From NCBI GenBank assembly GCA_030017955.1, contig JASEGR010000003.1, forward strand, positions 6,508 through 70,507: a stretch of DNA of 64,000 nt. The letters are read 5' to 3'. This DNA comes from Candidatus Eiseniibacteriota bacterium (GTDB lineage Bacteria > Eisenbacteria > RBG-16-71-46 > JASEGR01). Each line of letters begins with the position of its first letter. The first letter of the stretch is position 1. The translations under genes and the position numbers were made by a program. Below are positions 6,270 through 22,228 of the stretch, piece after piece. The notes beneath the pieces are model-generated. The model had not been told where the DNA came from and made no database searches. It saw nothing but the letters and a program-made list of their open reading frames with translations.

Positions 6270-6689
6270 ATGCTCAAGAACAGAAAGGGTTTCTCGCTTA
6301 TCGAGCTAATGATTGTGGTGGTAATCATAGGAATACTTGTTGCCATCGCAGTTCCAAACTTTATCTCGATGCAGAACAGGGCAAAAGAGGGAAGCGTTAA
6401 GGCAAACATGCACACTTTCCAGCTCGCCATGGAAGACTACGCCGTCCAGAACGACGGAACGTATGCGGTTGCAGCCGACAAGGATGACGTGGAGGCACTT
6501 TTCCCGGGCGGAGCGTGGCCTAAGAACCCGTTCACAGGCTCGGCGTACGCAGACGCAGACGTAGGGTTTGGAGCGGATCCTGACGCTGCCGGTGAGATGG
6601 CTGCCAACCCGGCAACGGCAAGTGGCTACACAATAAAGGGCTATGGGAAGAGCGCTATCCTGGCGCTGACTCTGACAAACGGCTCGTAA
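6270..6689 (+). CDS. pilA: Type IVa major pilin (prepilin with N-methylation/cleavage motif)
   Basis: The ATG at 6270 gives MLKNRKGFSLIELMIVVVIIGILVAIAVPNF, the class III signal with G|FSLIE (Glu at +5). The larger ORF-track start at 6234 is probably too early. Confidence 0.85.
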   Translation: MLKNRKGFSLIELMIVVVIIGILVAIAVPNFISMQNRAKEGSVKANMHTFQLAMEDYAVQNDGTYAVAADKDDVEALFPGGAWPKNPFTGSAYADADVGFGADPDAAGEMAANPATASGYTIKGYGKSAILALTLTNGS

Positions 6690-7720
6690 TGCGTGAAATT
6701 GCCCTGGTCAAAGAGAGAGGCGGTAGAACCCTGCTGCCTCTCTCTTCTTTTCCCGGTCTTCAACGGCCGGCGGGAGAGTCCGAGCCGCAGGTCCGCGCTG
6801 AAGCTGCAGTCAAAGTTGAGGGAATCGGCAAGTGCTTCAAATCGCCATTCCTCAGGACCAGGAAGTGGGCCGTGCGTTCGGTCTCGCTTGAGGTAAGGAG
6901 CGGGGAGATTTTTGGCCTCCTTGGGCCAAACGGTGCGGGGAAAACGACGACTTTGAAACTTCTGAGCGGTCTCATATTACCGACCGAAGGGACCGGCTCG
7001 ATACTAGGAAAGCCAATCGGAGATCCGGAGGCAAGGCGTGAGCTGGGATTCCTTCCAGAGAATCCGTCCTTCTACGAGAGGATTACGGTGGACGCCGTTC
7101 TCAAGTTCGCTGCTCGGTTGGCAGGAGTCTCAAAAAAAGGCACAAACGCGAGAGTGAGGCAGCTCATTTCTCTCCTGCGGCTCGACGAATGGGCTCGGAC
7201 TGAAGCGAGGAAACTCTCCAAAGGCACTCTCCAAAAGTTGGGCATCGCGCAAGCTATCGTAGGCAGTCCGAAGCTTCTTATTCTCGATGAGCCGATGAGT
7301 TCACTCGATCCAATTGGAAGAAGAGAGGTGAGAGAGCTTCTCCTCTCAATGAAGGAAAGCGGGGTCACAATTCTATTCTCAACGCACATCCTTCCTGACG
7401 TAGAGGCCTTGTGCGACAGGGTCGGAATAATGAAGGAGGGAAGAATAAGCCGGATCCTCAACTTGAACGAGACCGCAAGGAACTCGGAATCCTACGAGAT
7501 TCTGATTAGACATCCCAGACACGTAGTCGTTGAGAAACTCTCAAAGATATCGGAGGAAACGAGGCCGTCAAGAGAGGGTATCGCAGCGGTTCTCGACAGC
7601 AACCAGGCCCTGAAGAGAGCACTGATGATTGTTCTCGAAGAGGATGCTGAGCTCCTCGCCGTATCAAGGAAAGGCGAGAAACTGGAGGAATCTTTCATCA
7701 GGGAGGTGACAGAAGTTTGA
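6689..7720 (+). CDS. ABC transporter ATP-binding protein (pil-locus associated, PilH-like)
   Basis: Walker A GPNGAGKTT, signature LSKGTLQKLGIA and Walker B LLILDEP. Positioned between pilA and pilD, as in Myxococcus pilGHI. Confidence 0.8.
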   Translation: MREIALVKERGGRTLLPLSSFPGLQRPAGESEPQVRAEAAVKVEGIGKCFKSPFLRTRKWAVRSVSLEVRSGEIFGLLGPNGAGKTTTLKLLSGLILPTEGTGSILGKPIGDPEARRELGFLPENPSFYERITVDAVLKFAARLAGVSKKGTNARVRQLISLLRLDEWARTEARKLSKGTLQKLGIAQAIVGSPKLLILDEPMSSLDPIGRREVRELLLSMKESGVTILFSTHILPDVEALCDRVGIMKEGRISRILNLNETARNSESYEILIRHPRHVVVEKLSKISEETRPSREGIAAVLDSNQALKRALMIVLEEDAELLAVSRKGEKLEESFIREVTEV

Positions 7721-8481
7721 GGATTTCCGCAATTGTGCTGAACACGTTCAGAGAGGCCATAAGGGAAAAAGCCCTGTATCTCGTTGTTGCGTTCGGAATT
7801 CTCCTCATCATCAGCGGGCGGCTGGTGACACCGCTCGCCCTCGGCGAGGAAGCGAAGATAATGACAGACCTGGGGCTATCGGCTCTCTCTCTTTTTTCAC
7901 TTCTTATAGTTGTTCTTGTCGGGACTTCCCTCCTGAGAAAAGAGATGGAACGCCATACCGCTTATTCCGTCCTCTCCAAGCCCGTGAGGAGGGAGGAGTT
8001 CATTCTGGGGAAATACCTTGGGCTTCTGCTCACGGTCACGCTCGCCATTTTTCTCATGTCTCTTATTCTCATTCTCACTTTGAGAATGACCACCGGAAAA
8101 TGGGAGCCAGTGATGCTTCTTGGCGCATTTTTTGCGTTTCTCGAAGCGGTTGTTCTGACCGGCGCGGCAGTTTTCTTCTCCACTTTCGCCGGCTCCGTGA
8201 CCAGTTCGCTCTTCATCCTCTCGATTTACGTTCTTGGAGAGACAAGCGGAAGCCTGAAATACTGGGTCGACAGGGGCGGCTCACAACTGGGAAAAGGGGC
8301 AGTCTCACTTGCGTATTACATGCTTCCCAATCTCACAGCGCTGAATGTGAGAGGGGAGCTGGTTCACGGTGTTCCAGTCACCGCGGAGAGAATTATCTTC
8401 TGCTTCAGCTATTCACTGCTTTATGCATTCGCAACTCTTGCCATTGCCGTGCTGGTTTTCCGAAGGAGAGATCTGGCTTGA
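7717..8481 (+). CDS. ABC-2 type transporter permease (PilI-like)
   Basis: 254 aa with 6 predicted TM helices. Its 4-nt overlap with the upstream ABC ATPase suggests co-translation. Confidence 0.7.
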   Translation: MRISAIVLNTFREAIREKALYLVVAFGILLIISGRLVTPLALGEEAKIMTDLGLSALSLFSLLIVVLVGTSLLRKEMERHTAYSVLSKPVRREEFILGKYLGLLLTVTLAIFLMSLILILTLRMTTGKWEPVMLLGAFFAFLEAVVLTGAAVFFSTFAGSVTSSLFILSIYVLGETSGSLKYWVDRGGSQLGKGAVSLAYYMLPNLTALNVRGELVHGVPVTAERIIFCFSYSLLYAFATLAIAVLVFRRRDLA

Positions 8482-8505
8482 AAATAAAGTGAGGATTGCA
8501 TCCAA

Positions 8506-9177
8506 ATGCCTGCTGCCGGAAAAATCTCAACGACTCTGATTCTGCTCTCTGCTCTCGTATCATTTGCGATCGCCTGCTCGCTTGCCGACAGGATCGAGCG
8601 CGGGCGGGAGGATTTTTTGAAGGGAGAGCTCATGTACTTCCCGTCAGGGCTCTTTATCAAGGAATTTTCGCTGGGTCATGCTCCCCTGATGGCAGATCTC
8701 ATTTGGCTCCGGGGGATTCAGTACTACGGCGAGCACAAACTCACCGATAGGAATTTCAAATACTTGTCACACATTTTCAACACGCTTACAACGCTGGATC
8801 CACAGTTCTCTGCAGGGTACATATTCGGCTCGCTGATTATCTCGCAGGAGGCCGGGGAGACCGCTTCTGCCATACACCTCCTTGAGAAGGGAGTAAGAGA
8901 AAACCCTGGCAATTGGGAACTTCTTTTCGAGACCGGATTCACTTACTACGTTTTTCTCTCCGATTATAGAAAGTCTGCCCAGTACTTTCGGCTTGCCGCA
9001 CAGATCCCGAACTGCCCCGAGTACGTAACTCGATTTGCCGCCTACAGTTCGTCCAAGTCGGGCGATGTCGATTTTGCAATCAAACTCTGGGCTGAATTGA
9101 TGAGAAATACAAAGAATCAACAAATGAGGGAAATTGCCGAAAGAAATATTAGGAAGCTTACTCTAAGAAGGAGTTAG
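8506..9177 (+). CDS. Tetratricopeptide-repeat protein with N-terminal signal/anchor
   Basis: 223 aa with a hydrophobic N-terminus and TPR-like helical repeats. Positioned between the ABC-2 permease gene and pilD, 25 nt downstream of the permease stop. Confidence 0.55.
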   Translation: MPAAGKISTTLILLSALVSFAIACSLADRIERGREDFLKGELMYFPSGLFIKEFSLGHAPLMADLIWLRGIQYYGEHKLTDRNFKYLSHIFNTLTTLDPQFSAGYIFGSLIISQEAGETASAIHLLEKGVRENPGNWELLFETGFTYYVFLSDYRKSAQYFRLAAQIPNCPEYVTRFAAYSSSKSGDVDFAIKLWAELMRNTKNQQMREIAERNIRKLTLRRS

Positions 9178-9959
9178 TGTTGGAAAGGTTTATCCACATG
9201 TCCTGTCTTTTTGTCCTTGGCGCGGTGATGGGAAGTTTCCTGAATGTCTGCATCCACAGAATCCCGAGAGGGATGTCCATCGTCACGCCACGGTCGCACT
9301 GCCCAAAGTGTCTGGCAAAGATACGGGCAGTCGATAACATTCCAGTCCTGAGCTACATCATCCTTCGCGGCAGATGCCGCGTCTGTCACGAAAGGATCAG
9401 CCTGCGCTATATCGCAGTTGAACTCCTTCTCGGCGTTCTTTTTGTCCTTGGCGGGATCGTCTTTGAGCCGGGCTGGAGACTCTTTTTTCTACTTGCGTTC
9501 ATTTCGCTCGTTCTGAGCTCGATCATGACCGATCTCGAACTGCGCATAATACCGGACCGATTCAGCCTGACAGGACTCGGCCTGGGTGTGATATTCGCGC
9601 TATTCCTGGATGGAAACTGGGTCAAGGGAATAGGGGGGGCAATCTTCGGCGGAGGAAGCTTGTTCCTTGTGGGCTGGGCTTACAAGAGATTCAGAGGGAT
9701 AGATGGAATGGGCGGAGGCGACATCAAGATGGCAGCGATGATCGGCGCATTCCTGGGAATGGGGGGCGCGTTCTATTCTATTTTCTTCGCCTCCCTTGCC
9801 GGATCACTGTATGGCATTGCCTCAATTGTCTTGAAAAAGGGAACCATGAAAACTGAACTTCCGTTCGGGGTATTTCTCGGAATTAGTTCTGTTGCCGTGC
9901 TCTTCTGTCAGGAATTGCTCCTTATCCGGGCGATTCCCGCTCTGTGGGGATGGGGATAG
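9177..9959 (+). CDS. pilD: Prepilin peptidase / N-methyltransferase PilD (A24 family)
   Basis: GTG start. The N-terminal Cys tetrad is CPKC...CRVC. It has multiple TM helices and the conserved GGGD(I/V)K motif (GMGGGDIKMAAMIG). Confidence 0.85.
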   Translation: MLERFIHMSCLFVLGAVMGSFLNVCIHRIPRGMSIVTPRSHCPKCLAKIRAVDNIPVLSYIILRGRCRVCHERISLRYIAVELLLGVLFVLGGIVFEPGWRLFFLLAFISLVLSSIMTDLELRIIPDRFSLTGLGLGVIFALFLDGNWVKGIGGAIFGGGSLFLVGWAYKRFRGIDGMGGGDIKMAAMIGAFLGMGGAFYSIFFASLAGSLYGIASIVLKKGTMKTELPFGVFLGISSVAVLFCQELLLIRAIPALWGWG

Positions 9960-9963
9960 TCTC

Positions 9964-10980
9964 ATGCTCTGGAAGAAGAAAGAGGGAATCGGGCTCGACA
10001 TAGGATCAAGCGCAGCAAAGCTCGTCGTCCTTTCGAGAGCAGGAAAGAGGCTTCAGATCTCCCGGTACGGCATTCGGGAGCTGCCCCCGGAGGCAATTGT
10101 CGGTGGAGAGATCATTGATAGAGAGCTTGTCGTACGCGCCGTCTCCGAGCTGTCGGAAGAGCTCAAGGTGAAGGGTAGAAACGTCGTGACTGCGCTTTCA
10201 GGCAGAGGCGTGATTGTAAAGCGAATAACGACGGAAATGGTCGCAAAAGAGGCGCTAAGAGAGGCCGTGTTCTGCGCTGCAGAAGAGCATATACCGTTCG
10301 ACATAAATGATGTGGCAATGGATTTTCACGTTCTTAAGAGCGAAGGCAAGCCAAAGACCCTGGATGTCCTCCTTGTCGCAGTCAGGAAGGAGACGGTTTC
10401 CAACCTCCTGCAGCTATTGAAAGAGGCCGGGATTGGAGCCTCTGTCGTCGATATAAACCCCATGGCTGTTCTCAACTCTGTCAGTTATTCGGAGGATATA
10501 TCCAAGACCGAGATCTTCGCCGTGGTCGATGTTGGCGCCGAGTCAACATGCATAACCATATCAAGGGAATCAGAACCATTCCTGAGCTGGCACGTCTCAA
10601 CCGGTGCCAGAAGCTTCGCCCAGGCACTTCAGAAAGGCCTCAGCGTCACGCAGGCCGAGGCTCTGAAGATATTGATGGGAGAAGATGGAAAGGAGAAGGA
10701 TGAGGTCGTCAGTCTCATCCTGCCCGGCTTGGAGGAGATTGCCGCTTCTCTGGAGAGGGCTGTTTCCTACCTTTCGGATACAGGCGCCGGAGAGAAATTG
10801 GACAAGCTTTTTCTGTGCGGCGGAGGCTCCGCTTCCCTTGGCCTCACCGACTTCTTCTCGGAGAGATTTCCTGTCAATGTGAAGGTCGCAGACACGGTTC
10901 ACAAAATGGGGAGTGCACCTTCTCCTCTAGGCTCCAGATTGGCGGTTGCCATCGGCCTGGCTCTCAGGGAGGTCACGTAG
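9964..10980 (+). CDS. pilM: Type IV pilus assembly protein PilM (actin-like ATPase fold)
   Basis: The ATG at 9964 gives MLWKKKEGIGLDIGSSAAKLVVL, the actin-like phosphate-1 motif. It is followed by pilNOPQ. Confidence 0.85.
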   Translation: MLWKKKEGIGLDIGSSAAKLVVLSRAGKRLQISRYGIRELPPEAIVGGEIIDRELVVRAVSELSEELKVKGRNVVTALSGRGVIVKRITTEMVAKEALREAVFCAAEEHIPFDINDVAMDFHVLKSEGKPKTLDVLLVAVRKETVSNLLQLLKEAGIGASVVDINPMAVLNSVSYSEDISKTEIFAVVDVGAESTCITISRESEPFLSWHVSTGARSFAQALQKGLSVTQAEALKILMGEDGKEKDEVVSLILPGLEEIAASLERAVSYLSDTGAGEKLDKLFLCGGGSASLGLTDFFSERFPVNVKVADTVHKMGSAPSPLGSRLAVAIGLALREVT

Positions 10981-11043
10981 AAATGCTTCCCGGCAATTGC
11001 CTTGGACGCGCCGTCGACACAGATAGGGAGGGCGGCAAATAGA

Positions 11044-11631
11044 ATGATAAGAATCAACCTTGTTCCAGAAGAAGATAGAGACCGAGGTGCGCTCGGTGAA
11101 AGGCCTCGCGCCATCTCCGTCTTTTCGAAATCATTTCTCACTGTCTCACTCTTCATTGTGTTCGCCGGGACATTTTTTCAGATCGAACAGGGGAGAAGGG
11201 TATCTGAAGCTCTCTCTGAACTGGAGAAGAACATTGAGTTGAGAAAGAAAACGTCTTCAGAGATTTTGACGAGAGAAAGGGAGCTGCTCAAGCTCAAGGA
11301 GTACTTTGCAGGGATTCAAAGTCTGACCGGACAAAGGGGAGTCCCGGTCCTGGTTCTGGAAGAACTCTCGAGAAAACTTCCCGGCGATCTTTGGTACACC
11401 AGCGTTTTCCAGAGCGGGTCCCGGGAGATAACTATCGAGGGAGTCTCTTTCTCAAATCTAAGGGTTGCCCAGCTGATGGGTGGAATAGACCGGTCCACAA
11501 TCTTCGAGGGTACGAAACTGCTGTATTCGGAGAAAGGCACGGTATCCGGGAGAGATGTTGTGAAATTCAAGCTTACGGCAGTAGTGAGCTTCGGCGGAGT
11601 CAGTGAGCCTGCCCCGAGGAGGAAAGGATGA
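11044..11631 (+). CDS. pilN: Type IV pilus assembly protein PilN
   Basis: MIRINLVPEE N-terminus (INLLP-type motif), a single TM and a coiled region. It sits between pilM and pilO. Confidence 0.8.
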   Translation: MIRINLVPEEDRDRGALGERPRAISVFSKSFLTVSLFIVFAGTFFQIEQGRRVSEALSELEKNIELRKKTSSEILTRERELLKLKEYFAGIQSLTGQRGVPVLVLEELSRKLPGDLWYTSVFQSGSREITIEGVSFSNLRVAQLMGGIDRSTIFEGTKLLYSEKGTVSGRDVVKFKLTAVVSFGGVSEPAPRRKG

Positions 11632-12206
11632 ACCAACTCGGCATCTTGAGAAAAGGCGGACCAAAGATAACGATCATCTTCTCGGTTCTCATCCTCCTGA
11701 TTGATCTTGTCCTTCCTGGAATACCGTTCTCGTACTCAAGCTTCGCGACAAGGACAAAGGAGAAGGAGGAGAGGCTCGATTCCCTTGAACAGGAATCAGT
11801 CAGACTCGGGAGAAAGCTCTCTGGCCGGAAGGAAACGATGGATGAGCTTGCTGCTCTTCGCGAGAGATGGAATGTGGAGAAAGACCTCATTCCTGCAGAG
11901 CCGGATGTTGCCTCAATGCTTACGATGATCTCGCTTACCGCGATCGGCTGCGGTGTGACGATACTTCTTGTGAAGCCCGAACAGAAAAGGATCGTCAGGG
12001 GAATGACGGAGCTGCCTGTTTCTATCACGGTTGCCGGCGGCTACCACGAGACTGCCCGTTTCATCTCTGACATATTGAATCTTCCCAGACTCCTGAACGT
12101 AAGCCAGGTCAAGTTTCAATCGTACACGAAGGGCGGTCTGGATGAGACTGTAGAGGCAACGATGATAGTAACCGGGTATTCACATGGCGAGGCCGCAGGC
12201 AAATAG
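11628..12206 (+). CDS. pilO: Type IV pilus assembly protein PilO
   Basis: 192 aa with an N-terminal TM followed by a coiled coil, and a 4-nt overlap with pilN. Position and size are as expected for PilO. Confidence 0.7.
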   Translation: MNQLGILRKGGPKITIIFSVLILLIDLVLPGIPFSYSSFATRTKEKEERLDSLEQESVRLGRKLSGRKETMDELAALRERWNVEKDLIPAEPDVASMLTMISLTAIGCGVTILLVKPEQKRIVRGMTELPVSITVAGGYHETARFISDILNLPRLLNVSQVKFQSYTKGGLDETVEATMIVTGYSHGEAAGK

Positions 12207-12855
12207 CCCTATGAAAAATATCCTTGAACGGCTGATGTTAGCGGCGTTTCGAGCTCAACTTCTGGAAAGGACTGTCAGATGGTTCGGGAACGCTCCGGTG
12301 CGCTGCTTGTTTCACCTGGGCATCGCTGCACTTCTGCTTGTTTCGACAGGGACGGCAGGATCGAATACCGATACTGGAAAGGAGGGCTCCGCCCGGCAGG
12401 CGACCGGCGTGGAGAAGAAGGATGGAAGAGAGCTCCCATCGAACCCGGAGAAGAAGCTTGCCAACAACGGCATTTCTCCGGCAAAGAAAACGATGAACCC
12501 GGAAATAGGGTCTGTCCCCAGAACCTCCTACCAGTCCAGCAGGAGGAGAGACCCATTCTACTCGCTGCTTGACGGGGAATTTGAGTCTGAGTTCCCGGTG
12601 AAGCTCCCGAACATTGGAGAATGCTACCTGGTCGGAGTCGTGTGGGGAGAGGGAGAGTGGCTTGCCATTCTTGAGGACAAAGACGACAGGAGCTACATAG
12701 TCAGGGAAGGTGATCCGGTGATAGACGGCTACACCATTCAGGTGCGGAAGAAAGAAGTAATCTTCACGCAAAGAGGATACGGGGAAACACGGACAGTGAG
12801 TTTAAAACTCAGAGATAGGGAGAAGGCCAGTGGTACTAAGAACAAAGCAGGTTAA
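12184..12855 (+). CDS. pilP: Type IV pilus assembly protein PilP-like (low-complexity linker + C-terminal beta domain)
   Basis: 223 aa between pilO and the secretin. It has a hydrophobic N-terminal region and a Pro/Ser/Gly-rich linker. The start may be the internal ATG at 12211. Confidence 0.6.
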   Translation: MARPQANSPMKNILERLMLAAFRAQLLERTVRWFGNAPVRCLFHLGIAALLLVSTGTAGSNTDTGKEGSARQATGVEKKDGRELPSNPEKKLANNGISPAKKTMNPEIGSVPRTSYQSSRRRDPFYSLLDGEFESEFPVKLPNIGECYLVGVVWGEGEWLAILEDKDDRSYIVREGDPVIDGYTIQVRKKEVIFTQRGYGETRTVSLKLRDREKASGTKNKAG

Positions 12856-14464
12856 GATCATCATTTTCTCTGCTCTCTTCCTTGCGTGTGCCGTGGGGAA
12901 CGGGAGTTGTCTCTCAGTCACCGGCATGACTCTCAGGCAGCTGGGCGAGATAGACGAAGTGACTATCTCATCGGATGGGCCGCTGAGCCACAGGGATTTT
13001 CCTACCACAGCGCCTGACAGGATAGTCATCGACCTTTTCGATGCAACTATGAAGCTCAGCGACACCCTGATCAACGGCTCAGAGAGCCGGTTCGTCAGGG
13101 AGATAAAGGCCGAAGAGTGGCTAAGCGAACCGGGGCCCCTTACCAGGATCTCGATTTTGCTGACAAAGAGAAGTTCGTACTCGGTGCGGACAACGGCGTC
13201 CGGAATTGTTGTCTCGGTGCGGAGCAAAAAGGAAAAGAATTCATTACAGTCGAACGTGTCTTCCAAGATCCAGGGTTCAAAGCCCGGTCTGATCTCGATG
13301 AATATTCAGGCAGCGGACATAGTATCTGTTCTGAGGAGCATTGCAGAATACAGCGGAAGAAACATCGTTGCTACAAAGGACGTCAAGGGAGAGGTGACTG
13401 TCTCGCTCAAGGATGTTCCCTGGAGAGAGGCCTTGAACGCGATCGCAAATGCCCACGGATACGGGGTTGTCGAGGGGGACGAGATAATAACCGTCTCAAG
13501 TCTTCAGGATATCAGGGCTGAACAGCTGAGTGCGGACGAAGCAGAAAGAAAGAAGGAAGACTACCTGCCGCTTGAGATAAAAGTGGTCCGGGTGAAATTC
13601 GCAAACGCGAATGAGCTTTCCAAACCGCTCGCAAGAGTCCTGTCGAGAAGAGGAACAATCGAAGTTGACGAGAGGACCGGTTCCCTGATCGTAAGAGACA
13701 TCGCCTCGTCGATTGCCGAGCTTGAGAAACTTGTCGCTGAACTTGATACCCCGACCCCACAGGTCGAGATCACTGCAAGACTCGTTGACATCGACGTCAC
13801 CGCATCAAGAGAACTCGGAGTCGTGTGGTCCGGCGGAAGGACAGAGTCGGCAGGCGGATGGCAGGGGAAAACCGGCGTGAATTCGCCGGTGGGCAGCGCC
13901 ATTGGAACGATGAACTTCAGGACGACCGGAGGCACACTGGGGCTCGATGCTATTCTTCAGGCCCTTGAGTCAGAGAACAAGGCAACCATAATCTCAAATC
14001 CGAGGATCACTACTGCAGACAACAGGGAAGCCAGAATAATCGTCGGGAAGAAGATTCCTCTGATAGTGTCAGACATCGCAGGCAATCCAATCACCCAGCT
14101 TACTACCATCGGAATCCAACTCCTGGTCAGGCCGCACATAATCTCGGACGGAAGAATAACGATGGACCTTCATCCCGAGGTAAGCGATCTGTCTGCACAG
14201 GCCACAGTCCAAGGCGGCGTAATCATAAATACGAGTGAAGCCGACACAAGAGTGACAGTTCTTGATGGGGAGACTGCAGTAATCGGAGGCTTGACCAGGA
14301 CGAACGAAAGTGTCCTGAAGAGACGTGTTCCTCTTCTCGCCAGGATTCCTCTCCTGGGCAGGCTCTTCGGTTCATCCAGTCTGTCAAAGTCCAAGAGAGA
14401 GCTTGTCATCTTTGTCACACCCAAAATCATAGAGCCGGACGCCAGGCAGACGAAAAAGGACTAG
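12830..14464 (+). CDS. pilQ: Type IV pilus secretin PilQ
   Basis: 544 aa with a signal peptide and AMIN/N0-like domains. The C-terminal secretin domain carries the VxxGxxxxIGG and LGRLFG-type motifs (ETAVIGGL...IPLLGRLFG). Confidence 0.9.
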   Translation: MVLRTKQVKIIIFSALFLACAVGNGSCLSVTGMTLRQLGEIDEVTISSDGPLSHRDFPTTAPDRIVIDLFDATMKLSDTLINGSESRFVREIKAEEWLSEPGPLTRISILLTKRSSYSVRTTASGIVVSVRSKKEKNSLQSNVSSKIQGSKPGLISMNIQAADIVSVLRSIAEYSGRNIVATKDVKGEVTVSLKDVPWREALNAIANAHGYGVVEGDEIITVSSLQDIRAEQLSADEAERKKEDYLPLEIKVVRVKFANANELSKPLARVLSRRGTIEVDERTGSLIVRDIASSIAELEKLVAELDTPTPQVEITARLVDIDVTASRELGVVWSGGRTESAGGWQGKTGVNSPVGSAIGTMNFRTTGGTLGLDAILQALESENKATIISNPRITTADNREARIIVGKKIPLIVSDIAGNPITQLTTIGIQLLVRPHIISDGRITMDLHPEVSDLSAQATVQGGVIINTSEADTRVTVLDGETAVIGGLTRTNESVLKRRVPLLARIPLLGRLFGSSSLSKSKRELVIFVTPKIIEPDARQTKKD

Positions 14465-14668: not shown

Positions 14669-15289
14669 TTGAGATCGATACTGCCTGGTCTTCTTGGCGC
14701 CTCACTTCTCATCTCGTTCGTTCACGCTGCGATTCCGAGCCACTGGCTTCCGTTTGTTCTTGTGGGAAGGACACGGAGATGGAGCAAAGCAAAGACTCTT
14801 CTGGTCACGCTAATAGCCGGCGGCGGGCATGTCCTCACTACGGCAGTTCTTGGCGCCCTGGTGGCAGTCACCGGAATGAACCTCTTCGACAGATTCGGGA
14901 CTGCCGCACAGATTCTGGCCGGGACAATCCTCATTCTCTTCGGAACAGTCTACTTCATCACATCCCGAATCAGGCACGGGAGAAGCCACGGCCACAGTCA
15001 CGCGGTCTCAGAGTATGCATCAATTCTTTCCCTTCTCCTTGTCTTGAGCCTTTCCCCGTGTGAGGGAATGCTTCCAATCTACCTGGTTGTAAGCAAATTT
15101 GGCTGGCCTGCTTTCTTCCTTGCGTCCACCGTGCTTGCGCTTGGAACACTCTTTGGAATGTTTCTCTTTGTGAGTGCGGCCATGAGCGGCATGGAACGTT
15201 TTAAGTTGACATCCTTGGAAAAACACGAGGGGCTTCTCATCGGAGGCATGATGATCGGACTCGGAGTCCTCGTTTTCCTTGTCGGCTAG
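14669..15289 (+). CDS. Integral membrane protein with His-rich loop (putative Ni/Co/Zn transporter, UreH/HupE-like)
   Basis: TTG start. About 6 TM helices and an HGRSHGHSH loop. It sits directly upstream of a heavy-metal P1B ATPase in the same frame and orientation. Confidence 0.4.
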   Translation: MRSILPGLLGASLLISFVHAAIPSHWLPFVLVGRTRRWSKAKTLLVTLIAGGGHVLTTAVLGALVAVTGMNLFDRFGTAAQILAGTILILFGTVYFITSRIRHGRSHGHSHAVSEYASILSLLLVLSLSPCEGMLPIYLVVSKFGWPAFFLASTVLALGTLFGMFLFVSAAMSGMERFKLTSLEKHEGLLIGGMMIGLGVLVFLVG

Positions 15290-15292
15290 TGT

Positions 15293-17668
15293 GTGCCGGC
15301 CAGATCTTTAGGGAACTCGCCATTGAAGAAACGCATTCTTAAGCTTTCGGTACTCCTCGATTCTGACAGTGATTGTGACAGATGTGTGGAAAGACTTAAG
15401 GGCCTGCTGGCTCGAATCAGGGGAGTGAGTCTTGCGAAAATTGACCCGTCGAGCCGGACGGTCGCCGTCACTTACGACCCGCAGGCAGTCACAATGGACA
15501 CCCTTGACTCTCTCGCACGGGAAGCGGGCGTCACAATATCCACGAGATTCGCTCACAAGAGATGGGCCGTCACCGGTCTCGATTGTCCTGATTGTGCGTC
15601 GAAGATTGAGAAGAATGTTTCTCTCGTGGATGGGGTATTTTGGGTGGGAGTTTCTCTCCCTCTTTCCATCCTTGAGGTTGAATATGACAGGGAGAAAACG
15701 AGAGAAGAAGAAATTGTCTCCCGCGTGAGGAGACTCGGGTATGGCCTGAGAGACAAAAAGAAGGAAGTGCAGCCCGGACACAGGAGATGGGTTCCGATCT
15801 CAATCTCTGGAATGTTCCTCCTTCTCGGCTTCATTTCCCATCACATGGGGAATTTGTGGCTTTCCGGCTCTCTGTTTCTTGTTTCCGTTCTGATTTCAGG
15901 ACTTCCAACCGTGCGAAAAGCATTCTACTCGCTTTTGTCGCGTTCTCCGGATGTCAGCCTACTCATGTCAATTTCTGCGGTGGGAGCAGGGGCAATAGGG
16001 GAGTGGCCCGAAGGGGCAACGGTGCTTTTTCTCTTCAGTCTGGGAAACAGACTCCAGTTCTACACGATGGAGAAGACAAGACATGCTATCAAGTCACTGG
16101 TCGAAGCTTCACCCGACGAAGCAATGGTTGAAATCGACGGAGCGTTGGTAAGGAAGCCTGTCAGAGACCTGCTGCCTGGTGACACGGCGCTGGTAAGGCC
16201 AGGAGACAAGATTCCAGCCGATGGAGAGATTGCTTCGGGCAGTTCATACATAAACGAGTCAACAATCACGGGGGAAGCCACACCCAGGGAGAAGCGCGCC
16301 GGGGACGAAGTTTACGCTGGAACGATAAATGAAGGAAATCCTATCAGGATAATTGTCCGCAAGAAGTCCAAGGACAGCAGGGTTGCAAGAATAGTAACCC
16401 TCGTTGAAGAGGCGCAGCTGAGAAAGGCGCCGTCTCAGAGTTTCATCGAATCCTTTTCGAGATACTACACGCCCTCTGTTGTTCTTGTGTCCTTGCTCGT
16501 TTTCGCCGTACCTGTATTGGCGATGGGAGGCGAAGTAAGAGAATGGCTCTACCGGGCGCTCACAATTCTTGTTATCTCCTGTCCCTGCGCGCTCGTCATT
16601 TCCATCCCGGTTGCCGTTCTTGCGGCAATCGGAAATGCGTCAAGGAACGGGATACTCATAAAAGGCGGAGTGTTCCTGGAAGAACTCGGCAGAGCAAAGG
16701 TGTTTGCTTTTGACAAGACCGGAACAATTACCAGGGGGACTTCCGCTTTTTGCTCGTTAGATGCGTTTGGGCGAAGCGAGGATGATGCGCTCGCACTGGC
16801 CGCATCTTTGGAGAAGGAATCAACACATACGGTCGCAAAGGCCATACTGCATGAGGCAAGACACAGGAAGATAGAATTCAGAAAGACTTTCGATCCGGTT
16901 TCCTACCCGGGAAGAGGGGTCTCTGCAACGATTGACGGCGAAAGATTCTATCTCGGGAAGGAAGAGCTTCTTGATTCTGCAGGGATATGTTTTGACGCAA
17001 GCCCCTTTCATCTTTCCGGGACTGAGAGAAAAGAAAATCTCGTTTTCCTCGGGAGCAGCGGAAAACTGGTTGCAGTCTTTTTCCTGAGTGACAGGCCAAG
17101 GGAGGAGGCGAAAACCGCAGTGGGTGCCCTGAGCGCAATGAACGCAGCAAGGACAGTTTTGCTCTCCGGCGACACCGCCGAGAATACCGCCTCGGCCGGT
17201 TCCGAGATCGGAGTCAGCGAGAGTGTCGGGAATCTCAAGCCCGAGGATAAGGTCGAGATAATCGAAAGACTCAGGAAGGAAATAGGACCGGTGGTTATGG
17301 TCGGAGACGGTATAAACGATGCTCCCGGGCTCGCGGCGGCAAATGTGGGAATTGCCATGGGGGGAGCAGGAACGGATGTTGCACTCGAGACTGCCGATAT
17401 CGTACTGGCAACTGACGACCTCATGAAGATTCCCTACGCTTTCTCGCTCAGTAAGAAGACGAAGCGAGTTGTGCTCCAGAATGTGGTCTTCTCAATTACG
17501 ATTAAACTCCTCTTTCTCCTCATGGCTTTTCCGGGGTTCCTCACACTCTGGGTTGCCGTACTGGGTGACGTCGGCAGCTCCCTCCTCGTCACGTTGAACG
17601 GAATGCGCTTGCTCGGGCCGGGGGATACGGATGGGAAAACGCCCTTGCAGAAAGCAACGCGCGTCTAG
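15293..17668 (+). CDS. Heavy-metal translocating P1B-type ATPase (Zn/Cd/Pb CadA/ZntA-like)
   Basis: N-terminal HMA-like domains (GLDCPDCASKIE), TM CPC motif (SCPCALVIS), phosphorylation site DKTGTIT, and the GDGINDAP hinge. Confidence 0.9.
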   Translation: MPARSLGNSPLKKRILKLSVLLDSDSDCDRCVERLKGLLARIRGVSLAKIDPSSRTVAVTYDPQAVTMDTLDSLAREAGVTISTRFAHKRWAVTGLDCPDCASKIEKNVSLVDGVFWVGVSLPLSILEVEYDREKTREEEIVSRVRRLGYGLRDKKKEVQPGHRRWVPISISGMFLLLGFISHHMGNLWLSGSLFLVSVLISGLPTVRKAFYSLLSRSPDVSLLMSISAVGAGAIGEWPEGATVLFLFSLGNRLQFYTMEKTRHAIKSLVEASPDEAMVEIDGALVRKPVRDLLPGDTALVRPGDKIPADGEIASGSSYINESTITGEATPREKRAGDEVYAGTINEGNPIRIIVRKKSKDSRVARIVTLVEEAQLRKAPSQSFIESFSRYYTPSVVLVSLLVFAVPVLAMGGEVREWLYRALTILVISCPCALVISIPVAVLAAIGNASRNGILIKGGVFLEELGRAKVFAFDKTGTITRGTSAFCSLDAFGRSEDDALALAASLEKESTHTVAKAILHEARHRKIEFRKTFDPVSYPGRGVSATIDGERFYLGKEELLDSAGICFDASPFHLSGTERKENLVFLGSSGKLVAVFFLSDRPREEAKTAVGALSAMNAARTVLLSGDTAENTASAGSEIGVSESVGNLKPEDKVEIIERLRKEIGPVVMVGDGINDAPGLAAANVGIAMGGAGTDVALETADIVLATDDLMKIPYAFSLSKKTKRVVLQNVVFSITIKLLFLLMAFPGFLTLWVAVLGDVGSSLLVTLNGMRLLGPGDTDGKTPLQKATRV

Positions 17669-17900: not shown

Positions 17901-18323
17901 ATGCGACTCTCTCACTTGGAGGAGGTGGCGAATACCTTGAGAAGAACACCAGGTTTGAATCTCCTCTCTGAAAAGAGAGGTTTCACCCTCGTTGAGATTT
18001 GTGTCTCGTTCCTCCTAATGGCTCTCTTTTTTGCCGGGCTCGCCCAGTCATTCCCTCTCGCACTTAAGCTCGTGGTCGAGGGAAAGTTGCGAAATGAGGC
18101 CGCCGCGCTCGCCCAGGGAAAGATGGAGGAGCTCAAGTCGTACGGGTACGGGAGCGGCTTTCTCATTTCTGGATCCGATGAAGTTAGGGGGAAATACCGG
18201 AGAAGCTGGAATGTTACCCAGAATTCGCCGGTGCCGAGGATGAACGAGATAGTAGTCACCGTGAGCTGGAATCTGGGCTCGAAGGAACGCACTTTGGAGT
18301 TCAGGAACTATGTTGCACAGTAG
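17901..18323 (+). CDS. Minor pilin / pseudopilin with prepilin-type N-terminal cleavage-methylation domain
   Basis: The N-terminus RGFTLVEICVSFLLMALFFAG is a class III signal (G|FTLVE). Its 140-aa size is typical of PilV/GspI-like minor pilins. Confidence 0.7.
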   Translation: MRLSHLEEVANTLRRTPGLNLLSEKRGFTLVEICVSFLLMALFFAGLAQSFPLALKLVVEGKLRNEAAALAQGKMEELKSYGYGSGFLISGSDEVRGKYRRSWNVTQNSPVPRMNEIVVTVSWNLGSKERTLEFRNYVAQ

Positions 18324-20787
18324 AAACAGATTGCGTCTCGGGAAAGCCGGAGTCACAGTGGCCGAGCTTCTCGTCGTCATGGCGCTCCTTGCCCTTCTGC
18401 TTCTTTCTGTCTACAGGGTCTTGATAAAATCGGTTGAGTCTTCGATATCGGGACAGAGCCTGCAGGAGGTTGAGCAGCTGGCGAACATGGCGTCTCAGTG
18501 GATCGTGAATGACCTCAGACCGGCCGGCTACACTCTTGGTGTCGGCGACACGGCGTTTGCCCAAGCGACAACGGAGGAGATAGAGTTCCTGGGAGACATT
18601 GATGCCGATGGAACATCCGAAAGAGTCAAATACTATCTCGGCACTACCCAGGAGCTTTCCCGGACAATAAACCCAAGAGACAGATATCTGTACCGCTCGA
18701 TTGACGGCGAATCGCCTGGAAGAAGAGTTACGGAGGGAATTGTCAGCTTGCAGTTTGACTTCTTCGACAATGCAAGAGTATCTCTTCTGGACCATTCGGT
18801 GGAACCCCCGGCTGTGAGAGCTGATCCGTTTCTCGCCGACAAGAATGCAAACGGAATATCGGACGTCGTAGACATCAGGCTTGTTTCGGTTTCGATCCTG
18901 TGCGAGAGCGGAAAACAGGCTCCCAAGTCGGCTGGGAACTACTTCAAGACCACGGTCGTTACATCCGTCGCTCCTCCGAACCTTCCAATTCTTGCGCGTG
19001 GACTTAGGGGAACTGCTCCACCATCTGAGCCGGGGGGAGAAGGCGGCATGGTTCCAGCCTCGATTCTTTTCTCTGCCAGCCCTGAGACAATCATTGCCGA
19101 CGGGTTGAGCACATCAGAGCTCACCGCGCTGGTCACCGATCAGGCGGGAGTCGGCATAAGCGGCCTTACGGTTTCGATGACGGTGCTTTCCGGACCAGGA
19201 AATCTGGGAAATGTTGCAGACGCTGGAACCGGTGAATACGAGGCCACATTCATGTCCTCGGCCAGCATTGGCACCGCACTCATAGAGGCATCGACATCAG
19301 AACTTGCAGACACCACATCGGTCGTGCTTGTTCTGCCTGCCGCAAGCATCGGGCTTACGGCCGATCCTGACAGGATATTCGCGGATGGGAGCTCCACATC
19401 TATAATCAAGGCTTTTGTGAAGGATGCAAATGGCAATAGACTTGCTGGCGTGAACGTCAGAATGAGTTTCACACAGAGGGTCGGAGATGACGCCCTGTCT
19501 TCGGTGAGCTATCAATCATCTGATACCAGCTATGTTGCCACCTACACTAGCGCTACCAGACCCGGCGTGGCAACGATACTCTGCCAGGCAGAGGGGCTAA
19601 GCGGGACCGTCGATGTGCTCAACTACTGGTATCATGTGCTGCCGGTCAGCGAAAGGGTGCTGCACGTGAAGCTTGCCGACATTCAGGAAGACGTAGACCA
19701 AGACCTGGATATTTTCGTCGGAAGACCTTATCCCGCCTCTGAGATTGTGGTCTTCACCAATTCGGGAGCAGAAAACGGGCATATGAGGGAGTTCGGTGCC
19801 GTCTATTTCGACGCTCTCGATGCCCCGTTGGGGATGGCAGTCGAGAAGATGAGAGATGACAGGTTTGACGTGGTAGTCGCTACAGGTTCCAACAGCTACC
19901 AGAAGATGCAGGAGATCTTCAACGGTGACCCCAGGGGCACCCTGACATCTTCCACCATCTACGAAAGGTCTTTTGGAGGAAAGACGGTGTCTCTTGCAAC
20001 AGGGAAACTCTACTATCAAGCGGGAACGCCGGACAACTCTATTGACTGCGTCGTGGGCACAGATGCAGGACAATTTGAAATCTGGCTCAACGACGGCAGC
20101 GGGGGCAGGAATTCGCTTTTCTACAACAATACTTTTCCGAAAGGCGGGAGATTCTTGAGTGGCATCCCCTATGCGGTCAAGACAGGAGATGCAAGAGAGG
20201 ATGCTTCCGGGGATGTGGACATTTTCATAGGAGCAGGGACAAGTCTCGAGCTCTGGTTTGCCAACCCGGGTGCGGATTTCGGCAAACAGTCCAGCTCAAG
20301 GCCCAACGATGTCTTCGGTGAAGGAAGCAAGATTCTCAGCCTTGATGTGGGAGATATTGAAAAGGATGGCTATATCGACATCGTTGCGGGAGAGGAAAAC
20401 GGGGTGATTCAAGTTTTCAAGAACAATGGAAAAAAGAAGGCAGGCGATTTCATAAGGACGGGGCGCTTCCAGGCCGGCGGCAGTGTCTATTGTCTCAAGC
20501 TGTGTGATCTAAACAAAGACGGGTGGCTCGATCTGGTTGCAGGAACGTCAAATAACGAATTTGAGGTGAGACTGTCGAATGGAAACGGCTCCTTTCTTCA
20601 GCCGACTGCGTACGCTACAGCCATGTTCGGAGTCGTCAGCACCGTCGATTGCGGGGACATGAAGAAAGATGGAGGACAAGGCAACATAGATATAGTTGTC
20701 GGAGTGAACCTGTTCGCAGGGTTCGGGTTTGTTGAAATATGGTCCAACAATGGAAATGGCACCTTTCGCGGCCCGGATATACCGTGA
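18310..20787 (+). CDS. Giant prepilin-like protein (825 aa) with Ig-like (Big) repeats and FG-GAP/VCBS beta-propeller repeats; putative tip adhesin
   Basis: N-terminus KAGVTVAELLVVMALLALLLL is a class III signal with Glu at +5. The central region has repeated 'ADGSSTS...V.D' Ig-like segments. The C-terminus carries repeated D-x-D-x-D-G / 'DIDIVVG, DVDIFIGAG, YIDIVAGEENG, WLDLVAGTSNNE' FG-GAP-like motifs. Confidence 0.65.
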   Translation: MLHSRNRLRLGKAGVTVAELLVVMALLALLLLSVYRVLIKSVESSISGQSLQEVEQLANMASQWIVNDLRPAGYTLGVGDTAFAQATTEEIEFLGDIDADGTSERVKYYLGTTQELSRTINPRDRYLYRSIDGESPGRRVTEGIVSLQFDFFDNARVSLLDHSVEPPAVRADPFLADKNANGISDVVDIRLVSVSILCESGKQAPKSAGNYFKTTVVTSVAPPNLPILARGLRGTAPPSEPGGEGGMVPASILFSASPETIIADGLSTSELTALVTDQAGVGISGLTVSMTVLSGPGNLGNVADAGTGEYEATFMSSASIGTALIEASTSELADTTSVVLVLPAASIGLTADPDRIFADGSSTSIIKAFVKDANGNRLAGVNVRMSFTQRVGDDALSSVSYQSSDTSYVATYTSATRPGVATILCQAEGLSGTVDVLNYWYHVLPVSERVLHVKLADIQEDVDQDLDIFVGRPYPASEIVVFTNSGAENGHMREFGAVYFDALDAPLGMAVEKMRDDRFDVVVATGSNSYQKMQEIFNGDPRGTLTSSTIYERSFGGKTVSLATGKLYYQAGTPDNSIDCVVGTDAGQFEIWLNDGSGGRNSLFYNNTFPKGGRFLSGIPYAVKTGDAREDASGDVDIFIGAGTSLELWFANPGADFGKQSSSRPNDVFGEGSKILSLDVGDIEKDGYIDIVAGEENGVIQVFKNNGKKKAGDFIRTGRFQAGGSVYCLKLCDLNKDGWLDLVAGTSNNEFEVRLSNGNGSFLQPTAYATAMFGVVSTVDCGDMKKDGGQGNIDIVVGVNLFAGFGFVEIWSNNGNGTFRGPDIP

Positions 20788-20809
20788 ATTCTTAGAGGGA
20801 GGCACAACA

Positions 20810-22228
20810 ATGAATCTCAGAGAGAAGGGCATTGCACTCGTGACAGTTCTGCTCGTAGGTGTTTGCCTCTTTCTCTTCACCGCCGCTGCCGTCATCGTTG
20901 CTCAAAATGCGATGAGGCATGCAAGGAAGCAGGCAAACGAAACGAAGGTTCAGTATGTGGCCGAAGCCGGCCTTGAGAGAGCCCTGGCAAATCTAGCCCA
21001 AAATTCAAGCTGGCTCAACTTAGATCAAGGAGACCCGAACTTCAACGACGTGCCGTTCCAGCGGGGAATATTCGACGTCGATCCGATTATCGTTGATGGG
21101 AGCGACAGGATTGTCACTTCGCACGGATACATTCCTACAAAGGCAAATCCGCTCGCCGAGTTGACCGTGCGGGCAAGGGTCACGCCTGTTCCGCTGGCTT
21201 TTCGCCACGCACTCTTTTCGGCAGGGGAGTTCGAAGGTGAAGGCAGCGCTGGAACAATAGCGAGGGGATCTCTGTTTGCGTCGAAAGGATACACGCAGAA
21301 TTTCAACCGCTTCGTCTTTGACACAACCGCGGCAAAAGCAAATCAATATTTCATAGAGACACCTTCAAACCAAGTCGCACAGTCTCTTCTTTCGGATTAT
21401 GGTCCATATGTCAGATCCGGTTCCCAGGTGAATGATATATCGCTTCCGGACATAGACTATCTTGAGCTGACAAACCCAGGCAATTTCCCGGGGCAGGACG
21501 TTTACATGCTCACCCCTCCGACAATTGACCACCCTGAAGGTTCCCTGTGGACCGAGGGCGGGAAATACTACTATGCACTAGGCCCTTCATCTGATAAGGG
21601 AGAGAACAAGCTCTATCTCGATATTGCTCTGATCAACTCAACACTAGGGGGAACGTCGGAGACAGGGTCAATCGTTGCTGTGGATTTCGCGAGTTACTTC
21701 GACAGTTATCAGAGAATGGAGGATGAGCTTGTGATAACGAATCCAGGAGGGCTTCGCGGTGGATTAGCCACGACCTCATCCAGCATAGTCGCATACGCTT
21801 CACAGGGGGGAACGGCTACAAGGGACTGCGGGGCCGTGATCCAGGTCACAGGGGCCGATGTGACATTCGCCCCGAGAAACAGGTTTGCCCTTGTTGGCGG
21901 GGACATTAACATCATCAATACAAGCGGTACCGTAAAGATAGGAACTCCAACCTTCCCTGCCATTGCCTTCGGAACATCCACACTGCAGGGCTCCGGCACA
22001 GTTGACCTCTGGCCTGGTACATACCGGGGGGAACAAGGTCATATCGAGATCTACGGCTCCATTGTCTCTTCCAGCGATGTTGCGACAATTCACGGAAAGG
22101 GAAACGGGACCAGTGTGACGATCTGGTATGACGAAAGAGTCCTTGACAGCCAGGCTTCCGGCTTCCAGAAAGCCCTTATTGGCGGGGATTGCTATCTGGA
22201 GAGAAAGAGTATCGCAAGGATAAGGTGA
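20810..22228 (+). CDS. PilX-like minor pilin (PilX N-terminal domain) with large C-terminal domain
   Basis: The ATG at 20810 gives MNLREKGIALVTVLLVGVCLFLFTAAAVIVAQNAMRHARKQ, matching the PilX_N pattern. The ORF-track start at 20729 overlaps the upstream gene and is likely too early. Confidence 0.6.
   Translation: MNLREKGIALVTVLLVGVCLFLFTAAAVIVAQNAMRHARKQANETKVQYVAEAGLERALANLAQNSSWLNLDQGDPNFNDVPFQRGIFDVDPIIVDGSDRIVTSHGYIPTKANPLAELTVRARVTPVPLAFRHALFSAGEFEGEGSAGTIARGSLFASKGYTQNFNRFVFDTTAAKANQYFIETPSNQVAQSLLSDYGPYVRSGSQVNDISLPDIDYLELTNPGNFPGQDVYMLTPPTIDHPEGSLWTEGGKYYYALGPSSDKGENKLYLDIALINSTLGGTSETGSIVAVDFASYFDSYQRMEDELVITNPGGLRGGLATTSSSIVAYASQGGTATRDCGAVIQVTGADVTFAPRNRFALVGGDINIINTSGTVKIGTPTFPAIAFGTSTLQGSGTVDLWPGTYRGEQGHIEIYGSIVSSSDVATIHGKGNGTSVTIWYDERVLDSQASGFQKALIGGDCYLERKSIARIR

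Follow-up and report, generated by a model that had tools for sequence, protein, structure and literature searches.

The locus described here raises the question of what a minor pilin gains from carrying the domains of a large surface adhesin, and where in a pilus such a protein would sit. The stretch analysed, hereafter the window, comprises 64,000 nucleotides of contig JASEGR010000003.1 from the metagenome-assembled genome of a Candidatus Eiseniibacteriota bacterium. Three consecutive genes on its forward strand, near a type IVa pilus (T4aP) locus, encode prepilin-like proteins, the second of which is 825 amino acids (aa) long and combines a pilin module with Ig-like domains and a beta-propeller. 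We consider it likely that this trio forms the tip (priming) complex of the T4aP, in which a J-type modular pilin bears an adhesin head and probably replaces PilY1.

The three open reading frames (ORFs), at 17901-18323, 18310-20787 and 20729-22228, are co-oriented and tightly packed. Each encodes the class III signal that the first-pass annotation had read there, that is, a short basic leader, Gly-1 and about 20 hydrophobic residues, with cleavage sites RG/F in protein 1, AG/V in protein 2 and KG/I in protein 3 (the slash marks the site; the best Kyte-Doolittle 19-residue windows begin at aa 30, 21 and 15, respectively). A six-frame scan for prepilin motifs over all 64 kb found only these three proteins and the major pilin PilA. 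Genes 1 and 2 overlap by 14 nt, and gene 3 begins 22 nt past gene 2 at its likely start, ATG 20810, which has a GGGAGG ribosome-binding site upstream. The genes are thus packed operon-style; promoter and terminator scans gave background levels only and were uninformative on operon boundaries.

Protein 1 (17901-18323, 140 aa as ORF) resembles PilV/GspI. Its N-terminal region reads ...SEKRG/FTLVEICVSFLLMALFF, with the processing site RG/FTLVE, and its probable true start is TTG 17937 behind GGAGGAGGTGG, giving a 15-aa leader. N_methyl matched at E 0.0018, and the N-terminal matches to XpsI, PilV and GspH, like that one, were all below cutoff. A profile of the protein 1 family aligned to the first genes of stand-alone trios (hhalign 98.2%, E 5e-14), and tblastn located protein-1-like genes directly 3' of pilQ in seven related loci. 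Protein 3 (20810-22228, 472 aa), which begins MNLREKG/IALVTVLLVGVCLF, resembles PilX/GspK by N-terminal profile matches and synteny. PilX_N was matched at E 3e-4 or better in two of four members of its family, and protein 3 itself matched the GspK N-terminus at 5e-4; the family also aligned to PilX_N-positive 420-aa proteins (hhalign 92%, 61 aa) and to the third genes of stand-alone trios (hhalign 96.7%, N-terminal 117 columns). Glu5 is present in proteins 1 (FTLVE) and 2 (VTVAE) and absent from protein 3 (IALVT), which matches the expectation for a K/PilX cap subunit, since in the tip complex of the HIJK minor pilins it is the subunit lacking Glu5 that provides the cap (PMC10191384). We therefore presume that protein 3 is the cap. 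Its C-terminal part of about 400 aa has no Pfam, PDB or database relative beyond the cassette family, and a word-indexed homologue search with protein 3 returned no match. Against the PDB, the sole match of the family was ComZ, which was not significant (E 0.42, 37 aa), and neither was the hhalign comparison with a 492-aa third gene of the related locus L003; a beta-solenoid like that of ComZ may at most serve as a lead for the fold of this part. Taken together, these data support the trio as a minor-pilin set in V/I - W/J - X/K order.

The 825-aa product of the middle gene (18310-20787) is 100% identical to the NCBI entry 'invasin domain 3-containing protein [Candidatus Eisenbacteria bacterium]', and Pfam, hhalign, AlphaFold2 (AF2) and Foldseek divide it into a PilW/GspJ-class carrier, a stalk and a propeller. 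The leader peptide MLHSRNRLRLGKAG (aa 1-14, 18310-18351) is basic, ends in Gly-1 and aligns with the leaders MNIMRRKNSG/ and MSKKG/ of two homologues, P0009 and P0015. It is followed by VTVAELLVVMALLALLLL, so that the site reads AG/VTVAE and precedes 21 hydrophobic residues. The pilin module (aa 15-232, 18352-19005) contains Glu5, an alpha1 helix (aa 17-69) and a beta-sheet (aa 84-215), and its C-terminal end is a PilW-type '..PPNL..' (xRNL) motif. With hhalign, the module aligned from the signal to the xRNL motif, over 203 columns, with 13 proteins annotated as PilW or matching PF16074 (99.7%, E 4e-27), proteins that were drawn from our own profile-search matches and so carry a selection bias, though they were annotated as PilW independently. 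A profile of the N-terminal 231 residues matched stand-alone pilins of 182-213 aa and, more weakly, PilW-annotated proteins with PF16074 or PF27121 (PpdB), and pilin matches among PDB sequences were restricted to the N-terminal helix. Because the homology runs from the signal to the xRNL motif, the carrier is a complete J-class pilin and not the helix alone. The first-pass annotation, which had spoken of a pilin N-terminus, was right as to the pilin and too narrow as to its extent.

The remainder of the protein consists of grafted regions whose domain E-values are far beyond chance. The stalk (aa 249-342 and 343-440, 19054-19629) comprises two Big_1/Invasin_D3 Ig-like domains; within aa ~249-440, Invasin_D3 (E 4.4e-24, 85.3 bits, cutoff 33) and Big_1 (E 1.4e-16, 60.8 bits, cutoff 34.9) each matched two stretches. 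Among PDB sequences the stalk matched invasin 1cwv (E 4e-5), and Foldseek returned InvD, invasin, FdeC and intimin. The propeller (aa 448-825, 19651-20784) was matched by FG-GAP_3 in three stretches (E 1.5e-17, 64.4 bits, cutoff 26.9), and seven FG-GAP-like repeats could be laid out over it as seven four-stranded blades. The fold is a seven-bladed propeller, and its assignment to the FG-GAP family rests on Pfam. Both the Ig-like and the FG-GAP domains had been proposed from the letters alone; the four FG-GAP motifs quoted at that time are all present, in blades 4-7, and the resemblance to an integrin-alpha-type propeller was borne out by Pfam and by the structure and fold searches. Integrin-type Dx(E/N)xDGxxD loops, of the canonical DxNxDGxxD kind, occur in blade 5 (DIEKDGYID) and blade 6 (DLNKDGWLD), and the Asp residues of the loops are invariant in every blade across nine relatives. 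The propeller probably binds Ca2+, judging by these loops. The AF2 model built from a 3-sequence alignment placed the helix at aa 17-69, the sheet at 84-215, a disordered linker at 214-246, two beta-sandwiches at 251-439 and about 27 strands at 452-813; it is only moderately confident (mean pLDDT 58, pTM 0.47), and the blade count and fold matches lean partly on the sequence repeats. The model from the single sequence (pLDDT 33.5) was unusable.

Between the pilin module and the stalk lies a Pro/Gly-rich flexible linker (aa ~214-248, ...PPNLPILARGLRGTAPPSEPGGEGGMV, 18949-19053), with pLDDT below 50 over aa 214-246. A linker of this kind, about 35 residues long, might let the graft hang sideways, and the protein might then be an in-fibre adhesin distributed along the shaft, the location that the first-pass annotation had suggested. 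Protein 2 retains Glu5, which subunits under the cap need, and the authors of the modular-pilin survey would not exclude such pilins from the filament body if the linker is flexible enough (PMC8179133). We nevertheless regard this location as unlikely and the tip as far more probable. The carrier belongs to the J/PilW class, whose members are part of the tip or priming complex, and it is encoded in a V-W-X cassette together with a cap subunit without Glu5; such core minor pilins are found at the tip and in low abundance (PMC10191384, PMC7541494). A graft of 600 aa on every few subunits would also be hard to pass through PilQ.

The same design is found elsewhere. An exhaustive search identified two full-length homologues of protein 2 among its best 150 matches, P0009 and P0015, both from metagenomes, of 882 aa and 32-33% identity (E 1e-101 and 8e-77); the rest were giant repeat proteins sharing only Ig or FG-GAP parts, and a word-indexed search found no full-length relative. 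P0009 (MNIMRRKNSG/FSLIELL) and P0015 (MSKKG/FTLIEL) score above the N_methyl cutoff (28.0 and 26.1 bits), and each has three Invasin_D3 domains and an FG-GAP propeller. Across the relatives, N_methyl at E 0.01 or better and FG-GAP were each found in nine of nine. In both L001 and L002, a small pilin, an 882-aa pilin and a 474-479-aa protein with a PilX-like N-terminus are encoded in the same order as in the window, and in L001 the third gene is tandemly duplicated (L001:4385-7274). The closest stand-alone relatives of the pilin module are likewise middle genes, in trios of 161, about 200 and 337-441 aa. The V-W-X middle position is seen in the window, L001, L002, L003, L004, L006 and loci of the L023 type.

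Two of these loci carry tandem trios homologous to that of the window, four in L004 (L004:4438-15589) and two in L006 (L006:516-4279). Neither Gly-1 nor Glu5 is found at their N-termini (e.g. MNILLDILSSTFIGG...), and there is no room for longer starts because the genes abut; they are atypical pilin-like cassettes. A further V-W-X trio, in a metagenome-assembled genome of the Candidate Phyla Radiation (Minisyncoccia, JBAQFI010000007.1; L003:7998-12073), has its enlarged pilin in first place (GG/FTLIELL, ~590 aa mature), followed by a short PilW-like gene (202 aa) and a third gene of 492 aa, which indicates that a graft can sit on different subunits. L003 was the only locus found when genome contigs were scanned with an alignment of the pilin module; the corresponding metagenome scan found none, and neither did the genome-contig scan with protein 2.

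Comparison of related pil loci places the fused pilin at a defined site. A metagenome scan anchored on the window PilQ yielded 80 loci, which were searched by tblastn with all window proteins and in which the ORFs 3' of pilQ were read. The order pilA ... pilD-pilMNOPQ ... rsmD-coaD(-pta) is conserved among them, and in 15 loci rsmD lies 0.15 to 6.5 kb past pilQ. In the window, the trio is likewise followed on its 3' side by housekeeping genes including an rsmD-type methyltransferase, coaD, pta, obg and dprA. The pilQ-rsmD site is occupied in different ways. It holds nothing in L026, L027, L045, L048, L050 and L077. In L010, L017 and L018 it holds a ~935-aa Big_1 lipoprotein and a 251-aa protein, and the same lipoprotein lies 3' of pilQ in L008, L009, L012, L014 and L016, where the contigs stop before rsmD; these loci have the PilQs closest to that of the window (52-55% identity). 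At L010:11038-14635, for example, the lipoprotein is a non-pilin with five Big_1/Invasin_D3 domains, and the 251-aa protein has a signal peptide and precedes rsmD.

At the same site, L023, L024, L025, L034, L046 and L047 encode a GspH-like protein, a PilV-like protein, a ~990-aa prepilin (TRG/FTLVEI) and a 420-aa PilX_N protein; with the cut copies in L019 and L035 this cassette occurs in eight loci, and PilY1 is absent from them. According to Pfam, the ~990-aa proteins consist of N_methyl, three SdrD_B/CarboxypepD_reg sandwiches and an FG-GAP propeller, the last being 27% identical to the window propeller over 222 aa (E 7e-14). A PilW pilin with a propeller, on either a Big_1 or an SdrD_B stalk, is thus a design that recurs with two stalk types. 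In L051:12024-16932, by contrast, the site holds a PilV-like protein, a short PilW-like protein (TG/VTLVE), a 165-aa PilX-like protein and a 910-aa PilY1 with VWA and PF05567 (2.6e-25), and a cut copy in L049 retains PilV-like and short PilW-like genes that resemble those of L051. Pfam gave no PF05567 match at E 1 or better in protein 2 or in nine fused pilins, and tblastn found no PilY1-like sequence in the window or in loci other than L051. At this one site, the fused-pilin design and a set that contains PilY1 alternate.

Instead of adhesion, the head could mainly serve a mechanical or regulatory purpose: it might be a cork that halts retraction, or a switch that responds to Ca2+ and governs extension and retraction in the manner suggested for PilY1. 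Together with the minor pilins, PilY1 has been described as primer and retraction-ending cork (PMC7541494), and the preservation of the Asp-rich loops in all nine relatives would fit metal binding. We find such a purpose very doubtful as the reading of the head, with which adhesion would in any case be compatible. Combinations of Ig stalks with propellers of the FG-GAP, lectin-like or integrin-like kind typically serve to bind ligands, and the variation of the stalk between Big_1 and SdrD_B suggests selection for reach and not for a fixed fit in the machine.

The machine that would assemble the trio lies next to it. Pfam and NCBIfam scans of the ORFs showed a complete T4aP locus in Myxococcus-like order in the first 14.5 kb of the window, with pilB, T, C, A, D, M, N, O and Q all present. 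From the window start, the order is pilB (truncated by the window edge), pilT, pilC, a PAS histidine kinase, a sigma-54 response regulator and pilA, followed by an ABC ATPase, an ABC-2 permease, a weak TPR protein, pilD, pilM, pilN, pilO, a 223-aa ORF in the pilP position and an AMIN-type pilQ. PilA (6270-6689, MLKNRKG/FSLIELMIVV) matched N_methyl at E 1.9e-9, and its best NCBIfam match was the Myxococcus-type PilA N-terminus (1.4e-15). PilD (9177-9959; A24_N_bact E 7.5e-35, Peptidase_A24 E 1.7e-16), a prepilin peptidase/N-methylase, is the enzyme expected to process all three trio proteins. The assembly and secretin genes pilM-pilN-pilO-(pilP)-pilQ (9892-14464) were recognised by PilM_2, PilN, PilO and Secretin/Secretin_N/AMIN; these genes, like pilA and pilD, are on the forward strand.

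This context bears on a second alternative, namely that the trio is the GspI-J-K-type tip of a pseudopilus resembling that of a type II secretion system (T2SS), with the propeller recognising a secreted substrate. The gene order is indeed I-J-K, the best NCBIfam N-terminal matches are XpsI, PpdB/GspJ and GspK, and the HIJK sets of T4aP and T2SS are homologous and interchangeable for piliation (PMC10191384). Those matches, however, reach 12-20 bits against cutoffs of 65-150 and cover the N-terminal helix only. Scans of the window ORFs revealed no T2SS-specific gene (GspC, GspL or GspM) and no second secretin or ATPase set. The adjacent machine is equipped with PilT, PilM/N/O and a PilQ of the AMIN type, and the cassette of the relatives stands directly 3' of pilQ. 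On these scores and this gene context we rejected membership in the T2SS GspIJK set, and we consider a pseudopilus role quite improbable.

Returning to the T4aP tip, we propose the following sequence of events for the neighbouring pilBTC-pilSR-pilA-pilD-pilMNOPQ locus as the pilus builder. The three proteins would enter the inner membrane via their hydrophobic N-terminal helices and would be cleaved by PilD after Gly-1. Their alpha1 helices would then bundle the I/PilV-like, J/PilW-like and K/PilX-like subunits, and the K/PilX-like subunit would cap the filament because it lacks Glu5. Polymerisation of PilA below this complex would drive it out through PilQ, so that the head of the J subunit (linker, two-Ig stalk and propeller) would project from the tip and could bind a surface, a polymer or another cell; retraction driven by PilT would then pull on the bound head. 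In this lineage, the covalently attached propeller would probably take the place of a separate PilY1 adhesin. The sequences themselves establish the domain make-up, the kinship of the carrier with PilW, the conserved cassette and its place in the pil locus. Processing, tip location and subunit order are inferred by homology from work on GspIJK and on PilVWX-PilY1, where PilY1 sits on PilX/PilW at the pilus tip (PMC10191384, PMC7541494). Adhesion, Ca2+ binding and replacement of PilY1 are suggested by the alternation at the locus and by the precedent of modular pilins, which are adhesins and share FG-GAP modules with the N-termini of PilY1 proteins (PMC8179133).

Besides the selection bias of the PilW alignment and the moderate confidence of the structure model, several observations weigh against this interpretation. 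All the evidence for the trio model is computational. Proteins 1 and 2 score 18.2 and 16.4 bits with N_methyl (PF07963), below the gathering cutoff of 21.2, protein 2 has no direct Pfam match to PF16074 (PilW), and protein 3 scores 14.7 bits with PilX_N (PF14341) against a cutoff of 25.5 (E 0.03). The six-frame motif scan revealed no GspH/FimU-like fourth minor pilin in the window, and, as only 64 kb were seen, the rest of the genome could contain a PilY1 gene. In addition, Myxococcus xanthus PilW3-sfGFP, an artificial fusion with a bulky C-terminal tag, enters the machine and blocks its function, perhaps at the secretin (PMC7541494). This jam implies that passage of a 600-aa graft through the secretin is not trivial. 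Natural PilY1 proteins, at about 1,000 aa, nevertheless make this passage.

Since N_methyl remains below threshold in proteins 1 and 2, the case for protein 2 as a pilin rests on its relatives, and the protein might instead be a surface adhesin, anchored in the membrane or exported by Sec, with a helix that merely looks like that of a prepilin. Its +1 residue is Val and not Phe or Met, its NCBI name cites the invasin domain only, and the closest PilQ relatives carry the non-pilin Big_1 lipoprotein after pilQ. Yet its homologues have textbook G/F(T/S)LIE sites, and the approximately 200 residues past its helix are homologous to PilW. The unusual Val at +1 of the 825-aa protein recurs in the G/VTL(V/L)E sites encoded by the short PilW-type genes that L051 and L049 carry; both flanking genes of the trio encode pilins, and pilD is in the locus. 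A non-pilin adhesin therefore appears most improbable to us.

A broader reading of the pilQ-rsmD site, which we put forward only tentatively and with some doubt, is that Eisenbacteria-like T4aP have dispensed with PilY1. A non-homologous FG-GAP propeller on an Ig-type stalk, covalently fused to the PilW/J subunit, would then provide tip cap, adhesin and retraction stop, and the PilW-propeller and the PilW + PilX + PilY1 cassettes would be interchangeable alleles at a pilQ-rsmD hot spot. If this were true, the propeller head at the tip would be a convergently recruited requirement and not an invention specific to PilY1.

In the window itself, the trio is separated from pilMNOPQ by a metal module (14669-17668, forward strand) that ends 232 nt before the first trio gene. 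It consists of a 206-aa His-rich membrane protein and a P1B heavy-metal ATPase, the latter with E1-E2_ATPase, Hydrolase and two HMA matches and TIGR01525 at E 1e-174. Neither protein had a tblastn match in any of the 80 PilQ-anchored loci, an absence that is robust because P-type ATPases are easy to detect, and the relatives carry directly 3' of pilQ a GspH-like pilin gene that the window lacks. Both observations support the insertion or rearrangement that the first-pass annotation had supposed at this position, as the synteny shows the module to be absent from every related pilQ locus examined. The module has no notable flanking direct or inverted repeats, no break in GC or composition and no plasmid match, and is thus not a recognisable mobile element. 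It stands outside the pilus system, with no functional link evident.

Three other stretches of the neighbourhood deserve mention. The 206-aa protein (14669-15289), whose gene ends 4 nt before that of the P1B ATPase, is a multi-pass membrane protein with the His-rich loop HGRSHGHSH; it has no significant Pfam and no NCBIfam match and is presumably a metal-handling partner of the ATPase. The ORF at 12184-12855, which takes the place of pilP, likewise matched neither Pfam nor NCBIfam; tblastn found homologues of its C-terminal ~100 aa (31-41% identity) in the corresponding place of most related loci, and for this reason we interpret it as a divergent PilP. Between pilA and pilD (6689-9177), the genes for the ABC ATPase, the ABC-2 permease and the weak TPR protein may resemble Myxococcus pilGHI.

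Current research asks how T4P gain specificity in binding and what role PilY1 really has at the tip. One conserved site in related uncultured bacteria, with either a PilY1 set or a stalk-propeller PilW pilin, offers a natural experiment. If the fused form replaces PilY1, the head can be covalently attached to the J subunit, which would fix the projecting subunit and constrain models of the tip. It would also mean that a 600-aa graft on PilW passes the secretin, unlike the artificial PilW-sfGFP in Myxococcus. Modular pilins as a kind, and the exact, rare domain architecture seen here, were already catalogued in 2021, when the InterPro survey by Raynaud et al. counted more than 1,200 modular pilins with 264 architectures (PMC8179133). 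Its Dataset S1 lists IPR012902-IPR015217-IPR015217-IPR013517 (N_methyl - Invasin_D3 - Invasin_D3 - FG-GAP) for one protein and IPR012902-IPR033764-IPR013517 (N_methyl - SdrD_B - FG-GAP) for three (PMC8179133). New from the present work are the class to which the carrier subunit belongs, the cassette of three genes, the finding that the design recurs on two kinds of stalk and alternates at a fixed site with a PilY1 set, and the lineage-specific insertion of the ATPase. It also improves the annotation of a protein at present named merely for its invasin domain. In the literature searched, no paper combined "minor pilin" with FG-GAP, and Eisenbacteria pili received only passing mentions.

Compared with known systems, the 825-aa protein is a PilW/GspJ/PpdB-type pilin, which it resembles in its whole-module profile match, its place as the middle cassette gene, Glu5 and the C-terminal xRNL motif; ordinary members have 180-350 aa and end at xRNL, whereas the window protein continues for about 590 aa. 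Protein 3 shares with ComZ of Thermus thermophilus and with GspK a PilX_N/GspK-like helix without Glu5 and a large extra domain, but the match to ComZ is not significant, and relatives of its C-terminal ~400 aa are confined to the cassette family.

As a pilin module linked to domains that are not specific to T4P, the 825-aa protein falls under the definition of a modular pilin given by Raynaud et al. in 2021. We know of no studied member with the N_methyl - Invasin_D3 - Invasin_D3 - FG-GAP architecture. The modular pilins PilB and PilC of Streptococcus sanguinis offer the nearest parallel, for they too combine a pilin module, a short linker and a graft that is not T4P-specific, and there, too, the pilin with the graft is one of three minor pilins that make up a tip set, among them an I-like partner. 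The differences are that the window protein is part of a diderm T4aP with a secretin and has a full PilW/J-class carrier, and that its graft is a stalk and propeller of about 580 aa and not, as in S. sanguinis, a single vWA or lectin domain.

The likeness to PilY1/PilC of Pseudomonas, Neisseria and Myxococcus is of another kind. These proteins are large and tip-associated, have a seven-bladed propeller with Ca2+-type loops and are encoded with FimU-PilVWX genes, and in L051 the same stretch between pilQ and rsmD is filled by a canonical PilY1 cassette. The first-pass description of a PilY1-type adhesin fused to a pilin thus captured a resemblance in function and position and not a homology. 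Membership in the PilY1 family was rejected, as protein 2 has no PF05567 and is itself a prepilin, not a non-covalently docked partner. In PilY1, a non-pilin, the C-terminal PF05567 propeller serves as the docking module, whereas the window propeller is of the FG-GAP type and forms the distal head, and docking is provided by the covalently attached pilin.

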